A stretch of DNA of 64,000 bases, taken from positions 77,155-141,154 of IMG/VR virus record IMGVR_UViG_3300049573_000247; one strand, 5' to 3'. Position numbers and translations under genes: made by a program. Shown here piece after piece: positions 6,016 through 46,994 of the stretch. The notes under the pieces are model-generated. The model did not search any database. It saw only the letters and a program-made list of their open reading frames with translations, and was not told the DNA's origin. Positions within the stretch are counted from its first letter, which is position 1. The number at the start of each line of letters is the position of its first letter. The stretch comes from a virus (lineage: Duplodnaviria; Caudoviricetes).

Positions 6016-6657
6016 ATGTCGAATTGGGATGAACCGATCGAACTCGATGAAGACATCGAGTTGTGGGAGCAGCAGCCGGGCGAGACCGACGAGCAGTACA
6101 CCTTGTTCAAGATGTACATGAAGCTGTCGCCGCAAGCCGACACGGACAGCCGTGAAGTGCTGCCCCGTCGGATCTCCGAACTGTTCGGCAAGACCGACTT
6201 CTCCGACCGACACGTCAAGCGCCTCGCACGCCGCTACTGCTGGGAGGTGCGGGCTCGCGCGAACGACCTCGCGAAGGTCCAGTCCGTGCAAGGCCAGCTC
6301 GAACACCACTGGCTCGTCCTGGTCGAGAACCGGTTGAAGCAGCTGTCGAAGGCCGAAGAGATGATCTTCAAAGCCATGGAAGTGATGCTGCAGGAAGCCG
6401 ACACATGGAAGCTTCGCGACCTGGTCTTGCTGTGGGAGACATCGGTGAAGGTCGGCAACGGCATCCTCGGTATGACCCGACTGGGCGGACCCGAGCAGGC
6501 TGCCGTCGCGCATGCCATGGCCACCTCCCGCACCGAAGTCACCGTCGGCGGCGCCGGTGACTCGCTTGACGCCCGCACCATCGAACTTGCCGAGGAACTC
6601 CGGCGCAGGGCCGAACTCGCCACCGCTGCCCCGGCACCGGCGATCGAACAGGACTAG
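6016..6657 (+). CDS. terminase small subunit-like protein
   Basis: WEQQPGET...Y..F..Y and W..RA.A.D motifs typical of actinophage TerS-like proteins; leaderless start TACGAT-N6-ATG. Confidence 0.6.
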   Translation: MSNWDEPIELDEDIELWEQQPGETDEQYTLFKMYMKLSPQADTDSREVLPRRISELFGKTDFSDRHVKRLARRYCWEVRARANDLAKVQSVQGQLEHHWLVLVENRLKQLSKAEEMIFKAMEVMLQEADTWKLRDLVLLWETSVKVGNGILGMTRLGGPEQAAVAHAMATSRTEVTVGGAGDSLDARTIELAEELRRRAELATAAPAPAIEQD

Positions 6658-7031
6658 TCGACGACGCGCTGCTGCTGCTCGATGAGTTCGACCAGCGCGC
6701 GCAGATCATCAGCGACCGCGCTGGCCCGCTCGGTCAACGTCATGATCAGCAGCGCGTTCGGCCGTTTGATGTCAGGGCCGGGAAGGAGCGCCCCGGGTTC
6801 GACCTCCAGCGCTTCGGCTACGAGGACGAGATCGGTGACGCTGATCGGCTGCGAGCCCACTTCCCAGCGGGCGATGCTGACCTGATGGACGCCGACTTCC
6901 TCGCCGAGCCGCTCCTGCGTCCACTCGCGCTCTTTACGGACCTGCGCGATCCGGCGCCCGACCAGCGGCACGATCTGCGTGGCATACCCGGGACGCTTGA
7001 ACTTGCGCGAGGACATCCGTATCTCCTTCAT
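6654..7031 (-). CDS. XRE-family HTH regulator
   Basis: VGRRIAQVRKEREWTQERLGEEVGVHQVSIARWEVG...LVLVAEALEVEPGALL. Confidence 0.85.
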   Translation of the reverse strand: MKEIRMSSRKFKRPGYATQIVPLVGRRIAQVRKEREWTQERLGEEVGVHQVSIARWEVGSQPISVTDLVLVAEALEVEPGALLPGPDIKRPNALLIMTLTERASAVADDLRALVELIEQQQRVVD

Positions 7032-7573: not shown

Positions 7574-8019
7574 TCGTCGACGGGGACGGCGTCCGCGAAG
7601 CCCTCGGCGAAGACCGGCACGTCGCGCTCGCCGAGAACGCGGTCTGCGCTGAGCTGGACGGGTGCGTGCCCTGCTTCGAAGCGGTCATCGACGACATCGC
7701 GGCCGAGCCGACCGCGCTGCTCACCGCGCGCCGGTTCGGCTCGCTCATCCTCGGATTCGCCGAAGGCATCACGCCCATCGGGTCAGACGAAGAAGCGCAG
7801 GAGCTGCAGATGATCGTGACGCACCTCGCGCAGTCACGTGGCCTCGCGGCCGAGCTGCTGCAGTTCTGCGCCATGAACATGCTCGCCGCCCACCACGGAC
7901 ACGAAGCACACCCCCACCACGGGCGCAGCGGAGGCGGCGCGAAAACGAAGAAGCGGAAAGTCGTGCGCCACCCGAACCCGCGAGTGCGCACGAAAGGCGA
8001 ACGACGCCAGGACGGCTAA
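7528..8019 (+). CDS. hypothetical protein with His- and Lys/Arg-rich tail
   Basis: ORF track; good codon bias; start uncertain. Confidence 0.55.
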   Translation: MENGTGHGYRSHYRLIVDGDGVREALGEDRHVALAENAVCAELDGCVPCFEAVIDDIAAEPTALLTARRFGSLILGFAEGITPIGSDEEAQELQMIVTHLAQSRGLAAELLQFCAMNMLAAHHGHEAHPHHGRSGGGAKTKKRKVVRHPNPRVRTKGERRQDG

Positions 8020-8432
8020 GGCCGTGGCGGCGTCAGCGAACCGAGGAACCTGATCTGGTAGATCCGGCACCCGCACGGCTGGTTGACCTCCTCCAAAGAG
8101 ACCTGGCCGTGGTCGTTAATGTGGTACGCGCCGGTATAGCCGATGATGGCCTCGTCGCAGGACTTGCAGCGCGGCGGTAGCTCACCGGAGGCGTCGTCGA
8201 CACGAGCGCTCCCGAGGCGTTCAGCAACGGCTCGCTGCATCGCATGCGCCTGGCGGAAGATCAGCACGAGCATGCCGGTCTGCGCCATGACGACGACTGA
8301 AGCGACCAGGACGATGATCGCCGTGGCCATGAGCATTGACCCGAACACCTTCGGAGTCCCGGAAGCGAAACCGACAGCCGTCGCCAGCCCCGAGAGCGCC
8401 GCAACGGCGGCGAGGAAACGCACTGATTTCAT
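8016..8432 (-). CDS. membrane protein with C-terminal CxxC/PCGC motif
   Basis: Two hydrophobic N-terminal segments; AAGGA RBS. Confidence 0.6.
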   Translation of the reverse strand: MKSVRFLAAVAALSGLATAVGFASGTPKVFGSMLMATAIIVLVASVVVMAQTGMLVLIFRQAHAMQRAVAERLGSARVDDASGELPPRCKSCDEAIIGYTGAYHINDHGQVSLEEVNQPCGCRIYQIRFLGSLTPPRP

Positions 8433-8488: not shown

Positions 8489-9391
8489 CTAGCTGAGGGT
8501 GTGGAAGACTTTCTCGGCCTTGCGGCAGGACCGCATGAACTCGTTGATGCCCATCGTCGTCATCCTCAGCCTGTGCACCATCACCGAGGGCAGCAGCGTC
8601 GCCACCGACAAGTGGACGGTCTCATCCTTCCAGTGGTCTTCCACCGTGGGATCGGCGAACGCGTCGATAATGTCCTCTAGCGCTTCCACCGGGAACTCGC
8701 CGTGGAGCAGCTCCATGTCCTCCGCGAGCCGGTCGCGTTCCCCACGGTCAGGATTACGGCCTTCGAAGAGCATGTGGAGGGCGCCGCTGGCGGCGTTGTA
8801 GACCATGACCGACCGCTGGTGAGGCGTTTTCGTGTCATCTTTGAAGAGCAGCTTCGCGGCGCCATCGGGGTCGACGCAGACCGTCCTGTAGAACTCGGCG
8901 TAGTCCTCACCGAACGCCTCGATCATCGACTGGCGTCCCCGCGCGAAATGGTCCACGGCGTTGCCCACCCAACGGTCGACGTCGGCGTCGGTGAAGGCGG
9001 CGACAGCGTAGATGCCGTGCGGAAGAAGAAACGCCGTGCGGCGCATGACCGTGGGGTGGATCGAGTCCAGCCGCCGCTGCGCCGCCACCGAATCAGGCGT
9101 GAAGCAGCTCTCGATGATCGTGGCCAGCGCGAACGTGTCGACCGGCTCGTTGAAGATGCGGCGCATGCGGGAGGCGAGGGTCCGGATCTGTGCAGGCTTC
9201 GGCATGTTCGGCATGTTCGGCATGTTCGGCATGTTCGGGAAGCCGGTCATGATGGCCTGCTGGGCGGCGCAGGAGCGGAGCATCGCTTGTTCGTTCGCAG
9301 GCCACTGGTCGAGTTCGGTCTCGGCGGCGGCGGGGTCGGTAAGGATGAGGCGGAAGAAGCGGACCACGTTGGGGTCGGGTGGGTTGGTCAT
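8489..9391 (-). CDS. hypothetical protein made of two tandem homologous domains, with a (PNM)4 insert
   Basis: Start placed at ATG 9391 because the upstream part of the ORF is the tRNA; internal repeat F.R....DP..A..L ... LLP. Confidence 0.7.
   Translation of the reverse strand: MTNPPDPNVVRFFRLILTDPAAAETELDQWPANEQAMLRSCAAQQAIMTGFPNMPNMPNMPNMPKPAQIRTLASRMRRIFNEPVDTFALATIIESCFTPDSVAAQRRLDSIHPTVMRRTAFLLPHGIYAVAAFTDADVDRWVGNAVDHFARGRQSMIEAFGEDYAEFYRTVCVDPDGAAKLLFKDDTKTPHQRSVMVYNAASGALHMLFEGRNPDRGERDRLAEDMELLHGEFPVEALEDIIDAFADPTVEDHWKDETVHLSVATLLPSVMVHRLRMTTMGINEFMRSCRKAEKVFHTLS
9198..9238. repeat. 9-bp tandem repeat (TTCGGCATG) x4.5, in frame
   Basis: Direct reading. Confidence 0.9.
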
Positions 9392-9392
9392 G

Positions 9393-9474
9393 TGGACCGG
9401 GCAGGATTTGAACCTGCGATGCATGACGCAGCTGGTTTACAGCCAGCCCCTTTTGGCCGCTCGGGCACCGATCC
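9393..9474 (-). tRNA. tRNA-Tyr (GTA), no encoded CCA
   Basis: Acceptor GGATCGG/CCGGTCC, anticodon arm GCTGG-CTGTAAA-CCAGC, long variable arm, T arm GCAGG-TTCAAAT-CCTGC. Confidence 0.92.
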
Positions 9475-9584
9475 TTGTCGCCCGGCCTTCCCCCACGGAT
9501 GACCGGGCGCGCCCGCTTTGCGGGGAGTCCTACAGGGGTCGTCGCCTTGCGGCGGGTCCCCACCGGCCTTCCCCGACAAGAAGC
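9475..9584 (-). ncRNA. candidate structured RNA forming the 5' leader of tRNA-Tyr
   Basis: Closing stem TTGTCG/CGACAA, inner GGCCGG/CCGGTC, hairpins CGCC-GCAA-GGCG and CCCGC-AAA-GCGGG; extended -10 TGcTAGACT at 9591-9599. Confidence 0.45.
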
Positions 9585-9621
9585 GACGTGAGTCTAGCAC
9601 GCAGTCGGGTGTTTGTGGTGG

Positions 9622-9668
9622 TCGGCGGCGCCGCGCACAGTGTGTGAAGCAGACTGCGGCGCCGCCGA
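9622..9668. terminator. 13-bp GC hairpin, likely end of the terL transcript
   Basis: TCGGCGGCGCCGC ... GCGGCGCCGCCGA. Confidence 0.55.
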
Positions 9669-9726
9669 AACCGTGTCAGCAGCGTTGCTCGTAACGTGCC
9701 CGCAGTGCGGGTTGCCGACATGGCGG

Positions 9727-9990
9727 TTATTCACCCGGAGGTGAGTATACGTCGGCTGCGTCGTGAGCGCACGACATGTCTGGGACGTCGCCGTTGATGG
9801 CGAAGGTCTCGACCTGGTCGGCGATGCCGCGAATGAACTGGGCGAGTTCGACCGTGACGATGACCTGGTGGTCGTCGCCGTAGTGCGGGAGGATGGATGC
9901 GGGCAGTTGCCCGGCGGCGATGGGGTATTCATCGCCTTCGGGGCCGCGCATGATCATCGTCCATTCGCCGAGGTTCATTGTGCTCGCCAT
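9727..9990 (-). CDS. hypothetical protein
   Basis: AGGAG RBS; starts 8 bp after the terL stop. Confidence 0.65.
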   Translation of the reverse strand: MASTMNLGEWTMIMRGPEGDEYPIAAGQLPASILPHYGDDHQVIVTVELAQFIRGIADQVETFAINGDVPDMSCAHDAADVYSPPGE

Positions 9991-9998
9991 TGCTGCTC

Positions 9999-11513
9999 CT
10001 AGAACAAGTCGGTAGTCGACCAGTCGACGGGGTCGGCGTGGATGCTGATGCCGATGGGGGGTTCGATGATCTCGCCTCGCCCGTATCCCGATCCTTTGAG
10101 GAGTCCCTGGGCGAGGTAGACGGTGGCGTCGATGCGTCCGGGCGACTCTCGCGAGCCGGGTTGCCAGGTGGTCCACTGCTGGATGAGTTTGTCGTGTTCG
10201 CCTACGAGGCGGATGTCGCCTTGTACCCAGTATTGGGCAACGGGGTCCGCGCGAATGCGTTTTCCGTATCGGGCGCGAACTTCATCTATTCGGGGGATGG
10301 GGACATCGGGCGGAATGGTGCCGTCCTCCTCCAGATCGGACCATGCCGACTGGATCTGGAGTTTGCACATCTCGCCGCCGAAGTTCGTCTCCACGAAGAT
10401 GACGTCGGCAGTCAGCTCGTAGGACATGAGAGCGACCTCGCGGGCCCACTCGGTGGGTGAGGCCTGTCGGGATTTGTCGTGGGTGATGTAGCAGCGGTGG
10501 TCGTCGCCGAGGAATCCGGCGACGATTCCGGCTTCGTCGCCGCCTGCGGTGCCGGAGGGGTCGACGGCGACGGCGACACGCAGTTTGTCGGGGAGCGGTT
10601 CCCCGGGGCGGTGCCGGGAGGCTTCGATCTGTTCGAGGTTGAGGAGTGCGCCTTCGGCGGGCTGGGGGTCGCATTGGAAGAGCGCGAACCAGTCGCGTTT
10701 GGACAGCGAGGATTGGAGGCCGCCCCAGTGGGCGAGGAGCGCGTTCGTGTCATCGTGGGGGATTTTGGGGTGGCCGAGGGGTTCGCCGAGGGCGCGGCCG
10801 AGCGGGTCGTTGGATTCGACGGCGATCGCGGGGAGGCGGATGACGTCCCATTCGTCGCCTTCGCGTTTGAGGAGGCGACCGGCTATGTCGTCTTCATGCC
10901 AGCGGGTGAGCACGAGGACGATGGGGGCGCCGGGTGAGCCTCGGGTGAGGAAGGTGGAGGTCCACCAGTGGTCGACGGCGTCGCGGAACAGCTTCGATTC
11001 CGCTTCTTCACGGTCTTTGTGGGGGTCGTCGCAGATGAGGAGATCGCCGTCATGGCCTGTCAGACCCGAACCGACACCGACAGTTTTCATGCCGCCGCCG
11101 GTAGTGAGCTTCCAGGCTTGGGCGGTGCGTGCTTCGGGAGAGATGGTGAGGCCGAGCTTGTGGCCGTGCTCGCGGACGGCCTTGCGGACGTCGCGGCCCC
11201 AGTTTTTGGCGAGGTCGGAGCCGTAGGCGGCGGCGACGACCTGGTGATGGGGGTGGTGGGCGAGCCACCACAGCGGGAATTTCTTGGTGACCAGCTCGCT
11301 TTTGCCGGTGCGCGGCGGCGCGAAGATCATGATCTTGCGTTTGCCGCCGGGTTGGCGCAGCCGTGCGAGGCGCTCGCCGATGAGTCGGTGGTGGGGGCAG
11401 ATCTGGTAGCGGGGTTCGAGCCACGCGCCGAGGCTGGCGGGATCGTGGAGCGCCTGGACGCGCGCGGCGTAGGCGTACAGCTCCGCGTCAGACAGCTTCG
11501 AAAGATCCGGCAT
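9999..11513 (-). CDS. terL: terminase large subunit
   Basis: APPRTGKS Walker A, LLICDDPHKD Walker B, TRWHEDD, VAVDPS and SPGRIDA nuclease motifs. Confidence 0.93.
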   Translation of the reverse strand: MPDLSKLSDAELYAYAARVQALHDPASLGAWLEPRYQICPHHRLIGERLARLRQPGGKRKIMIFAPPRTGKSELVTKKFPLWWLAHHPHHQVVAAAYGSDLAKNWGRDVRKAVREHGHKLGLTISPEARTAQAWKLTTGGGMKTVGVGSGLTGHDGDLLICDDPHKDREEAESKLFRDAVDHWWTSTFLTRGSPGAPIVLVLTRWHEDDIAGRLLKREGDEWDVIRLPAIAVESNDPLGRALGEPLGHPKIPHDDTNALLAHWGGLQSSLSKRDWFALFQCDPQPAEGALLNLEQIEASRHRPGEPLPDKLRVAVAVDPSGTAGGDEAGIVAGFLGDDHRCYITHDKSRQASPTEWAREVALMSYELTADVIFVETNFGGEMCKLQIQSAWSDLEEDGTIPPDVPIPRIDEVRARYGKRIRADPVAQYWVQGDIRLVGEHDKLIQQWTTWQPGSRESPGRIDATVYLAQGLLKGSGYGRGEIIEPPIGISIHADPVDWSTTDLF

Positions 11514-11554
11514 AACCCGAATCTACCTGAATGTCCGTTTCATTCAGCTATGAG

Positions 11555-29736: not shown

Positions 29737-29738
29737 CG

Positions 29739-29812
29739 TCGCGGAGGCGGGATTTGAACCCGCGACCTTCAGGTTATGAGCCTGTTGAGCTACCGAACTG
29801 CTCTACTCCGCA
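29739..29812 (-). tRNA. tRNA-Met (CAT), initiator-like, no encoded CCA
   Basis: TGCGGAG/CTCCGCG acceptor, GAGC/GCTC D stem with A11-T24, CAGG-CTCATAA-CCTG, GCGGG-TTCAAAT-CCCGC. Confidence 0.9.
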
Positions 29813-45170: not shown

Positions 45171-46994
45171 ATGGCACGGTGCGGATGCGCCTCAACGAAC
45201 GCGACGACCTGCGCGGCAATCGTCGCCTGCATCGCCTCGAACTTGGGTCCTGGCCTGGAGTTCAGCAACAACCTCATCGGTGTACACATCTCCGGGGATG
45301 CGGACAACGTCACGGAAATCGGCACCGATAACGGCTTGTTCACGCCGACCGGAAGCGTTGGCCCAGGTGAACAGACGTGGCTTCGGACGGTAGCGACACT
45401 GCCTGCACAAGCGATCAGCGCTACAGGGGCTGGTATCGGCGTCGGGCCGTCCACGTCGCCGCACCTCATTGAGTACTGCATCAACAACGAGATCGACATG
45501 TACTCCACGACCGTCCTCATGGGCGCCGACGGTGTTGCTCTGGAAACTGTGCAGGGCCCTGGAAGCTCGGTCACCGTCTTTACCGACAACCCGGGGCCGC
45601 TCGACTGGGGCGATGGGTCGGCACTGACTATGAGCACCATCAACTACGACGCAGGTACCAGGGTAAATCCGACCAGCAACAACTCCAACGCCCCGGCGCA
45701 GTTTTTGACTCCGGACGGCGGATGGGCCGGATTCTACCTCAACCAGTACACCGGTCGTTCGGTCGCCGAGACGTTGCGGATGGTGCGTGGCCGAATCATC
45801 ATCGATCTTCGCGTCTCCCGCAACGGTGTCACGGAAGACGAGATTGAGGCATCGATTCGGGCTTGTGTCCAGGCGGTAGTGGATGCGGGTGCGCAGGACT
45901 GGTGCATTGTCAACGTCCCCGGCTACCTCGATGATGACTCGCTTGCGCCCATCCTGGATTGGGTGCCGCTGGTGACCAGCCAAGGCATCACCGCAGCGGT
46001 GAATTTGATCGTAGAGTCGGAAGCACCGGTCATCCAGCCCGTTGCCGATATCGTTGCCTCGGGTGCAACATGGGTTGCTGCGGTCCGTGACGACCATATG
46101 CCGGACACCGTCAGCGATACTCGCATCACCGAGCTGGTCACGGCCGGTCTGCAAGTCATGGCCCGCACCACCTCCAGGCAATACTGGACCACCTATAACT
46201 TCACCACCCTCGGGGTTCGCGTCGTCGAAGGACCAGACCCGGTCTACGCACGGGGAGTGCGTGGCGTCGCCGGTGACCTTGACTACCGGCAGACGTTCAT
46301 CCCCGGTCTCGATACCCGCACGCCCATCAGTGGAGCGCTGACGAGGGTCACCGACATCGAACGGGGGGTGTGGAACGGCGGATTCCCGCGCCTGGACCTG
46401 CCGGGCCGGTGGTTCGAGAAACGGTACGGATGGGACGGCACCATCCTGGTCAACGAGGTGAACCAGATCCTGGGCACCATTTGCCCGATCCCCAACACCA
46501 CCGACTACGAGATTCGGCTGCGTGTACGACGCGAAGCGGACGCCACAATGACTTCCAACCAGGAAGTCAGCATCTTCTTCGCTATCCCCGACGACCGCGA
46601 CATCTCCACGCCCACGGGCGAGAGCAACGTCTTCAAGGATGGCTACTCGGCGCGGATCACATCGCAGAGCACCTCTTCGTCGTTTCGACAGATCTCAATA
46701 CGACGCTGGACCAACGGCGGTTTCACGACGTTGGTGAGCGAGAGCAACACGGTGGCGTTGCCGACGAACTCGTGGGCGGACCTGACCGTTCGCGTCCAGG
46801 GTTCCCAGCTGACGTTCATCGCGACAGTGGCGGGAACGACCCGGACGTTGACGATCGCCGACAGCACTTGGCGAGGTCCCTATGTCGCCTACTCGTGGCG
46901 CGACGAGTTCAACACCGGAAATGCCGCTTACCCGGGTTTTATTCACGGTTACACGAACCCGGTGGATTTGGTGATGTATGCACCGCTCTCTTAA
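45171..46994 (+). CDS. paralog of the preceding GDPD-like tail protein
   Basis: Colinear similarity: NLGPGL, ISG.A.N.T.IGTD, RITELV.AGL, RGVRG..GDLDYR, LG..CPIP. Confidence 0.7.
   Translation: MARCGCASTNATTCAAIVACIASNLGPGLEFSNNLIGVHISGDADNVTEIGTDNGLFTPTGSVGPGEQTWLRTVATLPAQAISATGAGIGVGPSTSPHLIEYCINNEIDMYSTTVLMGADGVALETVQGPGSSVTVFTDNPGPLDWGDGSALTMSTINYDAGTRVNPTSNNSNAPAQFLTPDGGWAGFYLNQYTGRSVAETLRMVRGRIIIDLRVSRNGVTEDEIEASIRACVQAVVDAGAQDWCIVNVPGYLDDDSLAPILDWVPLVTSQGITAAVNLIVESEAPVIQPVADIVASGATWVAAVRDDHMPDTVSDTRITELVTAGLQVMARTTSRQYWTTYNFTTLGVRVVEGPDPVYARGVRGVAGDLDYRQTFIPGLDTRTPISGALTRVTDIERGVWNGGFPRLDLPGRWFEKRYGWDGTILVNEVNQILGTICPIPNTTDYEIRLRVRREADATMTSNQEVSIFFAIPDDRDISTPTGESNVFKDGYSARITSQSTSSSFRQISIRRWTNGGFTTLVSESNTVALPTNSWADLTVRVQGSQLTFIATVAGTTRTLTIADSTWRGPYVAYSWRDEFNTGNAAYPGFIHGYTNPVDLVMYAPLS

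Follow-up and report, generated by a model that had tools for sequence, protein, structure and literature searches.

A tRNA-Tyr gene set flush against a phage start codon: possible tRNA punctuation of a leaderless mRNA

How is a gene translated whose start codon lies one base behind a tRNA, where no space is left for a ribosome-binding site? This question is raised by a locus on the minus strand of a 64,000-nucleotide stretch of DNA from an uncultured phage, in which an extended -10 promoter element, a structured leader, a tRNA-Tyr and a gene for a protein of 300 amino acids (aa) are closely packed one behind the other. The stretch, called the window in the following, represents the last 64 kb of the 141,154-bp IMG/VR virus record IMGVR_UViG_3300049573_000247 (G000), and positions are given in window coordinates unless the genome is mentioned. 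A first-pass annotation of the sequence had proposed that tRNA maturation by the host releases two products from this unit, a discrete non-coding RNA and a near-leaderless mRNA. Our comparison with related phages supports the mRNA half of this proposal; the other half is only plausible.

The anatomy of the junction can be read directly from the sequence. The tRNA ends with its discriminator base A73 (A9393), a single C follows at 9392, and the ATG at 9391-9389, which occupies tRNA position 75, opens a reading frame that extends to 8489. There is indeed no room for a ribosome-binding site in front of this C-ATG, as had been annotated, and no Shine-Dalgarno (SD)-like motif occurs in the 20 nucleotides (nt) before the ATG, which are formed by the T arm and the acceptor strand of the tRNA. 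The gap of one base lies within the 0-2 nt that characterize tRNA punctuation without a ribosome-binding site, and the SD-less AUG or GUG start typical of leaderless mRNAs is represented by ATG in the window and by GTG in the related loci L007 and L022. The tRNA itself scored 49.9 bits against the Rfam family RF00005 (gathering threshold 29, E = 4e-9, model positions 1-71), and ARAGORN placed the anticodon gta at position 35. Its long variable arm, the G1-C72 pair and A73 complete, together with the GUA anticodon, what we take to be the bacterial tyrosine identity set. The acceptor strands read GGATCGG/CCGGTCC, CCA is not encoded, and the tRNA is conserved in the relatives.

The start codon at position 75 is also the one that evolution has kept. 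All homologues of the 300-aa protein begin with the same Met, which is encoded by GTG in L007 and by ATG in the other loci of the window's clade. Among seven close relatives, the variable sites within the first 40 codons are distributed 10/4/22 over the three codon positions; changes in codons 7-36 are mostly found at the third position, and codons 7, 10, 11, 14, 15, 17, 18 and 20 show synonymous changes only. This bias argues that the region is translated. The first-pass annotation had named a downstream start with its own ribosome-binding site as the finding that would speak against it, and no conserved start exists between codons 1 and 37: at codon 9, where the window has GTG, relatives carry GTC or ATT, and codon 37 is the next conserved in-frame start. 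Upstream, an ATG within the variable arm of the tRNA is not conserved. On this comparison, codon 1 is the sole possible conserved start.

Related loci were gathered via the 300-aa protein as well as via the terminase large subunit encoded upstream; for the homologues P0001 and P0013 locus DNA is absent, so they stand outside the junction comparison. The common gene order is terminase, small open reading frame (ORF), GC-rich hairpin and TGNTANNCT box, and four arrangements follow behind it (A to D in Table 1). Ten related loci, belonging to four lineages, show the A73-C74-start junction unchanged, and because of this exact retention the flush junction has to be regarded as more than chance. Where the junction is broken, an SD-like motif takes over, regardless of whether the tRNA is followed by an encoded CCA and a short spacer (L016, L049, L050/L051), by a long spacer (L006), or is missing altogether (L052, L053). 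The rule that emerges from these sequences is simple: a start in tRNA position 75 comes without SD, every other arrangement comes with an SD-like motif. A further locus, L003, which was found by the junction pattern, was discarded as a chance match within an unrelated gene.

Furthermore, the flush site is not reserved for the family of the 300-aa protein (the 290-aa family in Table 1). It appears to be used by four unrelated ORFs behind three different tRNA-Tyr sequences, judged from the lack of significant similarity among them. The 92-aa ORF of L048 looks unrelated by inspection of its translation, and a 296-aa homologue of the 300-aa protein lies downstream of it, preceded by AAAGGAA. In L021 and L022, which have differing tRNA-Tyr sequences and terminase identities of 73% and 71%, respectively, the 161-aa ORF reached an hhalign E value of 0.36 against the 290-aa family and the 136-aa ORF gave a weak partial match (E = 0.011); BLASTP found no alignment between the two. 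All four flush ORFs display a G+C content of 0.82-0.88 at third codon positions (GC3) versus 0.40-0.46 at second positions (GC2), as in real genes. In a terminase tree, which was rooted with a 47%-identical outgroup and includes several unsupported forks, L021 and L022 are basal, followed by L006 and L048, L053, L016 and L049, and the window clade. According to this order, the flush state goes far back and is widely distributed, recurring in L048 and in the window clade, with SD-led states scattered between flush ones.

Table 1. Features of the locus in window coordinates and arrangements found at the same place in related phages.
Feature or arrangement	Position or loci	Strand	Basis or content
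Extended -10 element TGCTAGACT	9591..9599 (9599-9591)	minus	read from sequence; motif kept in relatives
Structured 5' leader, ~110 nt	9475..9584	minus	predicted folds; consensus fold; compensatory pairs
tRNA-Tyr(GUA), class II	9393..9474	minus	ARAGORN; Rfam RF00005
C74, sole base between A73 and start codon	9392	minus	read from sequence
Coding sequence, 300 aa, all-alpha, no SD	8489..9391 (stop included)	minus	ORF; homologues; codon-position statistics
GC-rich hairpin between upstream operon and tRNA promoter	9617..9674	minus	sequence; comparison with relatives
Terminase large subunit gene, 504 aa	9999..11513	minus	Pfam Terminase_6N, E = 1.1e-9
Small SD-led ORF, 87 aa, after terminase gene	9727..9990	minus	GGAG 6 nt before ATG
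Next gene, 138 aa, hydrophobic N terminus	8016..8432	minus	AAGGATGA 7 nt before ATG
A, flush without SD	window, L002, L004, L007, L011, L012, L013		leader, CCA-less tRNA-Tyr, C, ATG/GTG of 290-aa family
A, flush without SD	L048		same leader family and junction; unrelated 92-aa ORF flush
A, flush without SD	L021		C, then ATG of 161-aa ORF; unrelated leader
A, flush without SD	L022		C, then GTG of 136-aa ORF; unrelated leader
B, CCA and SD spacer	L016, L049, L050/L051		no leader; 22-nt spacer with GGAGAG, AAGGAAA or GGAGAA before ATG
C, long spacer	L006		leader present; tRNA, then CCC, 89-nt spacer with GAGGGA
D, no tRNA	L052, L053		AAGGAA or GGAG before ATG

The host of this phage is most likely an actinobacterium, since the closest cultured relatives of its terminase large subunit (~40% identity) are those of Saccharomonospora, Gordonia, Mycobacterium and Microbacterium phages, i.e. 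of actinophages. Assuming such a host, we propose that 3' maturation of the tRNA creates a translatable mRNA of the 300-aa gene that is leaderless or carries a one-base leader, a reading to which we assign a probability of roughly 0.6. The extended -10 promoter would start a transcript near G9584, and one precursor would comprise the 110-nt leader, the tRNA-Tyr and the mRNA of the 300-aa protein plus the next genes. A cut by host RNase P at G9474 would free the leader, and the host tRNA 3' endonuclease would cut behind A73, where RNase Z canonically cleaves, or one base further, behind C74. This single 3' cut would leave the tRNA ready to receive its CCA, together with an mRNA beginning at the start codon or with C plus the start codon. 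Actinobacterial ribosomes efficiently translate leaderless mRNAs of this kind with AUG or GUG in front, and a ribosome-binding site would not be needed. In this way, the tRNA would act as the punctuation mark that creates a translation start.

The promoter was found as it had been annotated. Its motif TGNTANNCT is retained in every lineage despite diverged flanks, and the predicted transcription start G9584 is the 7th nt after the hexamer. The same 6-nt spacing puts the start on the ATG of the terminase gene, and on tRNA base 1 in L016, L049 and L050, where an extended -10 (TGTTAGGCT or TGCTACGCT; L016:4433-4460, L049:2192-2220, L050:557-585) ends exactly 6 nt before the tRNA; their tRNAs would be transcribed from their own first base, with no need of an RNase P cut. 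This position of the -10 box and an encoded CCA are shared by all loci of arrangement B. For the window, co-transcription is suggested since the -10 element is conserved upstream and no promoter-like hexamer exists inside the tRNA, and endonucleolytic cuts at both tRNA ends are assumed by analogy with known tRNA maturation. RNA-end maps of Propionibacterium acnes showed that tRNA precursors with an encoded CCA are cut "always between the Cs", i.e. at C74/C75 (PMC3848588), and C74/C75 cleavage was also reported for most CCA-encoding tRNAs of Streptomyces coelicolor (PMC4681348). Hence, the mRNA may start exactly at A9391 and not at C9392, which makes C74 a candidate for the last base of the processed tRNA. 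C74 is present in all eight tRNAs of the phage genome, the following CA is missing in seven of them, and a full CCA is encoded in tRNA-Lys only; this uniform C74 may mark the host 3' cleavage site. Moreover, leaderless mRNAs are common in Actinobacteria (PMC3848588, Lin et al. 2013; PMC4633059, Shell et al. 2015). In mycobacteria, leaderless mRNAs are translated about as well from GUG as from AUG, and in Caulobacter initiation drops to roughly half with every base added at the 5' end (PMC8459731), which would explain both the toggling between ATG and GTG and the rigid spacing of 0-1 nt.

Several points weigh against the proposed processing. Co-transcription, both cut sites, the 5' end of the mRNA and leaderless translation are all inferred from sequence, and the same is true for the host assignment, which was derived from terminase relatives. 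A real flush gene stands behind only one of the eight tRNAs of the genome. Phage mosaicism and the unsupported forks of the terminase tree weaken arguments of parsimony. In addition, cytosines 74 and 75 are anti-determinants for RNase Z of Bacillus subtilis, and the lone C74 might slow the cleavage. Finally, a 5'-monophosphate end is a good substrate for RNase J/RNase E, and the resulting mRNA might be short-lived.

The leader was analyzed separately. It is predicted to fold into two domains, a long, bent hairpin whose variable tip bears a GCAA tetraloop (domain 1, 9584-9511) and a GC-rich hairpin whose loop and 3' arm are G-rich (domain 2, 9509-9479), followed by the 4-nt tail ACAA that adjoins tRNA base 1. 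The fold of the 110-mer reaches -59.2 kcal/mol, with a paired 5' G at one end and the GC hairpin and the tail at the other; compared to shuffled sequences it is only modestly more stable (z = -2.5). The first-pass annotation had drawn a closed element with a three-way junction. Its arms TTGTCG (9579-9574) and CGACAA (9480-9475) and its GCAA tetraloop are present, but the fold had to be given up: it reaches -48.8 kcal/mol versus -62.7 kcal/mol for the two-domain minimum-energy fold, i.e. it is 14 kcal/mol worse, and besides this energy cost the leader homologues of L006 and L048 lack the TTGTCG/CGACAA closing helix. Similarly, the 12-mer GGGGAAGGCCGG occurs twice as had been noted (9574-9563 and 9493-9482), but its second copy is found in no relative; as these are the only two exact copies in the window as well as in the whole 141-kb genome, a role of the repeat as binding site was rejected. 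A coding potential of the leader was also rejected, because the 70-codon frame at 9388-9600 is interrupted by a 10-nt indel in relatives.

Conservation of the leader, on which the earlier proposal had been made to depend, was found in nine loci. In an alignment of eight sequences, 93% of the cells are paired and compensatory changes occur in 6/37 pairs, with a covariation score above all 500 shuffles and all slid controls. The covariance model R1, built from these eight loci, detects the ninth, untrained leader of L048 at 51 bits, and finds no match in L016, L021, L022, L049 and L050. The R1 family is retained down to 83% terminase identity. At the tip of domain 1, the window, L007 and L048 have a long hairpin capped by GCAA, whereas the other members have a short one. 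In Rfam 15 the leader reaches no gathering threshold; the sole overlap, with Scr2736, scores 19.1 bits versus a required 43 (E = 5.3) and runs into the tRNA. Unrelated structured leaders of similar length precede the tRNAs of L021 and L022 (z = -1.7 and -3.9, respectively), L016, L049 and L050 have none, and L006 has the leader without a flush gene. Judged from these comparisons, the leader is a real and conserved structured RNA in part of the phage family, which is dispensable for the tRNA-gene module.

It is plausible that this RNA is released as a stable, discrete molecule. We see an even chance, however, that the leader serves merely as a cis-acting part of the precursor, as 5' stabiliser or as guide for folding and processing, and is degraded after the RNase P cut. 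Its dispensability in L016, L049 and L050, where the -10 box sits 6 nt before tRNA base 1, is consistent with such a role; the unrelated leaders of similar length in L021 and L022 suggest a generic structural function, and in the tRNA-Lys and tRNA-Val units of this genome a hairpin likewise lies immediately 5' of the tRNA. Against a cis-acting role only speaks the retention of R1 sequence and structure, including six compensatory pairs, over the terminase distance mentioned above. Moreover, the predicted 110-mer with its paired 5' base, GC hairpin and 4-nt tail shows the build of a stable small RNA.

Regarding the translation start, the most serious rival to processing by tRNA maturation is tight gene packing only. 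Then, the gene would be translated SD-independently from a precursor that is at least partly unprocessed, via an A/C-rich unstructured start, ribosomal protein S1 or 70S scanning, and tRNA maturation and translation would compete for each transcript instead of cooperating. Over their first 30 nt, the flush ORFs are indeed weakly structured and would be accessible with or without processing; the same region folds weakly in flush and SD-led genes alike, which makes the measure uninformative between the two readings. It also fits to packing that CCA-less tRNAs of S. coelicolor were reported to be cut a few nt downstream and then trimmed (PMC4681348), which would make tRNA and mRNA mutually exclusive; at the present locus such a route would cost the mRNA its start codon. 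However, packing leaves unexplained why the spacing is exactly one base, and always a C, in four lineages, with four ORFs, and with ATG as well as GTG, and why an SD-like motif is found in every relative with a longer spacer. Furthermore, the start codon lies 2 nt from a stable 7-bp acceptor helix, which, judged from the ribosome footprint, would leave no single-stranded RNA for the 30S subunit on the precursor. Therefore, tRNA 3' maturation appears as the simplest route to an mRNA 5' end, and we regard packing only as rather unlikely.

A second possibility, to which we give little credit, is a bridged ribosome-binding site. Hairpin-bridged ribosome-binding sites exist in genes 25 and 38 of phage T4. 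Correspondingly, the folded tRNA could bring the G-rich, SD-like run GGGGGAAGG (9494-9486) of leader domain 2 near the ATG, where it would act as SD on the unprocessed precursor. The window clade and L048 have a purine run that lies 12-17 nt upstream of tRNA base 1, with GGAGG in L002, L011 and L013, and a bridge predicts the observed pattern, too, i.e. leaders with flush SD-less genes and spacers with SD where the leader is absent. Nevertheless, the run and the ATG would effectively be separated by no less than 14 nt in addition to the helix end, with roughly half of this distance inside the stable GC stem of domain 2, and only a G run is present in L007 and L048. In the flush loci L021 and L022 the leaders are unrelated and show no SD-like run at this place, L006 has the leader with neither the G run nor a flush gene, and the precursor would have to escape RNase P.

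Hardly any weight is given to a promoter inside the tRNA gene that would produce a primary leaderless transcript from A9391 without tRNA processing: the phage does place a -10 box at 6 nt from the start codon of its terminase gene, but the hexamer at -12 to -7 relative to the ATG is TGCCCG and not TANNNT, the hexamers of L021 and L022 fail likewise, the sole string resembling TANNNT is TCAAAT in the T loop, whose end is 14 nt away from the ATG, and tRNA constraints leave no room to evolve such a box.

If tRNA maturation creates the mRNA start, a wider reading of the locus comes into sight, which we put forward as tentative and rather doubtful. Position 75 might be a portable expression dock, where any ORF could be expressed without its own promoter or ribosome-binding site, accompanied by a stable RNA of ~110 nt. 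Equally speculative, one promoter would then give rise to three functional products by host tRNA maturation alone, as a bacterial-virus counterpart of mitochondrial punctuation.

Among known systems, tRNA punctuation of animal mitochondria, reportedly described by Ojala, Montoya and Attardi in 1981, comes to mind first. Processing of mitochondrial tRNAs by RNase P and RNase Z/ELAC2 and leaderless mitochondrial mRNAs are described in two further papers (PMC5716156, PMC6924987). By analogy this is the closest known system: a tRNA stands 0-2 nt before a start codon, the mRNA has neither leader nor SD, and its 5' end is set by tRNA excision, as we propose it here. Unlike in mitochondria, where punctuation is genome-wide, a single tRNA within a phage operon with its own promoter is concerned; the enzymes would be those of a bacterial, namely actinobacterial, host, the cut may follow C74 and not the discriminator, and the processing is proposed from sequence. 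Bacterial tRNA-mRNA co-transcripts exist in the Escherichia coli operons thrU-tyrU-glyT-thrT-tufB and tyrT-tpr. They share with our locus a tRNA and a protein gene under one promoter and, in our proposal, a precursor that is separated by tRNA processing; but they have a spacer and a normal SD, like L016, L049 and L050, whereas the start codon occupies tRNA position 75 here. Structured by-products of tRNA precursors are represented by the species 1 and 2 RNAs from the tRNA cluster of phage T4 and by the 3' external transcribed spacer of E. coli leuZ, a sponge RNA. Like these, the leader would be a structured non-tRNA RNA that shares its transcript with a tRNA and is freed by RNase P/RNase E; no relationship to them was found by sequence or in Rfam, and the leader lies 5' of the tRNA, directly after the predicted transcription start. 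With actinobacterial leaderless mRNAs (PMC4633059, PMC3848588) the proposed mRNA would share the AUG or GUG at the 5' end and the missing SD, but those are primary transcripts with a triphosphate and a promoter 6-7 nt upstream, whereas cleavage would produce a monophosphate end here.

We found no paper on tRNA-punctuated leaderless mRNAs made by processing in phages or bacteria, in a literature search whose incomplete coverage does not prove absence. The contribution of the present locus is that orthologous positions show the alternative states side by side, and that four apparently unrelated genes have made use of a single flush site. If the proposed mechanism is true, it would add a third route to a translatable start in bacteria and their viruses, beside SD-led and promoter-made leaderless starts, in which an RNA-processing enzyme makes the 5' end. 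The amount of a phage protein would be tied to tRNA maturation, the trouble of gene callers and annotators with genes that overlap or abut tRNAs would be explained, and a compact natural design for co-expression of RNA and protein in Actinobacteria would be at hand. The locus represents a clean test case, since orthologous phages show the flush gene without SD, the spacer with SD, and SD without any tRNA.

The genome record has a G+C content of ~65% and a completeness of 99% (CheckV). About 50 bases at its end (141100-141154) repeat its start (1-60); therefore, the assembly is circular, permuted or terminally redundant, and complete, although it is labelled linear. In records of cultured phages, neither the locus (blastn) nor the 300-aa protein (tblastn) found a match, and only the terminase has relatives there. 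The nearest one, Saccharomonospora phage PIS 136, has no tRNA annotated next to its terminase gene, a statement that refers to its annotation and not to a tRNA scan.

The tRNA genes are located at genome positions 6341-6868, 46376-46451, 86546-86628 (window 9392-9474) and 106892-106966 (window 29738-29812). Outside the window, on the minus strand at genome 6250-6341, tRNA-Pro is followed by a C-ATG as well, with a frame of only 29 codons that runs through a terminator-like hairpin; this is probably chance and not a gene. The tRNA-Lys and tRNA-Val genes (genome ~46452-46500 and 6869-6900, minus) carry a GC hairpin at or near tRNA base 1, downstream of a -10-like box, and the tRNA units of this phage may in general possess structured 5' leaders. 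In L049 (923-1012, minus), ARAGORN called a 90-nt tRNA-Asp antisense within the terminase coding sequence, which is very likely a false positive.

Upstream of the tRNA promoter, the GC-rich hairpin is built with arms on GGCGGCGCCGC and followed by GACCACCACAAAC in place of a U run. It is kept in L002-L013, L006, L016, L048, L049 and L050, and the arms of L016 are altered yet still pairing. The terminator scan made no call there, and the T run of an intrinsic terminator is missing; the element might be terminator-like or protect an RNA 3' end. The terminase gene itself lacks an SD, and a TAGATT -10 box precedes its ATG at a distance of exactly 6 nt (11513-11540, minus); this is, from its sequence, the design of a promoter-made leaderless transcript. 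All relatives have a small ORF of 81-92 aa in synteny with the one behind the terminase gene, for which no match exists in Pfam or PHROG. The 138-aa gene, with a syntenic counterpart of 138-142 aa in relatives, provides an SD-led internal control on the same strand as the 300-aa gene.

The 300-aa protein has eight homologues at 41-94% identity in a large protein collection and ten more distant ones in a representative library; no family match was found in Pfam or PHROG. Its gene shows G+C contents of 0.63/0.43/0.88 at the three codon positions. An AlphaFold2 model (predicted local distance difference test score, pLDDT, of 85) is all-alpha with two lobes; none of the Foldseek matches reached E <= 0.001, and VIA-align gave a top Z of 5.5 over ~100 residues, which is within the noise range for helical models. 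The flush ORF of L022 (L022:4609-5019) weakly resembles residues 197-276, the C-terminal lobe, of the 290-aa family, and the 290-aa protein may have arisen from a unit of this kind by internal duplication. Finally, four copies of the tandem 9-nt repeat CCGAACATG (9199-9237, minus, codons 52-64) encode Pro-Asn-Met four times; all homologues have one copy and the window protein is 9 residues longer, and by this comparison the repeat is a recent expansion.

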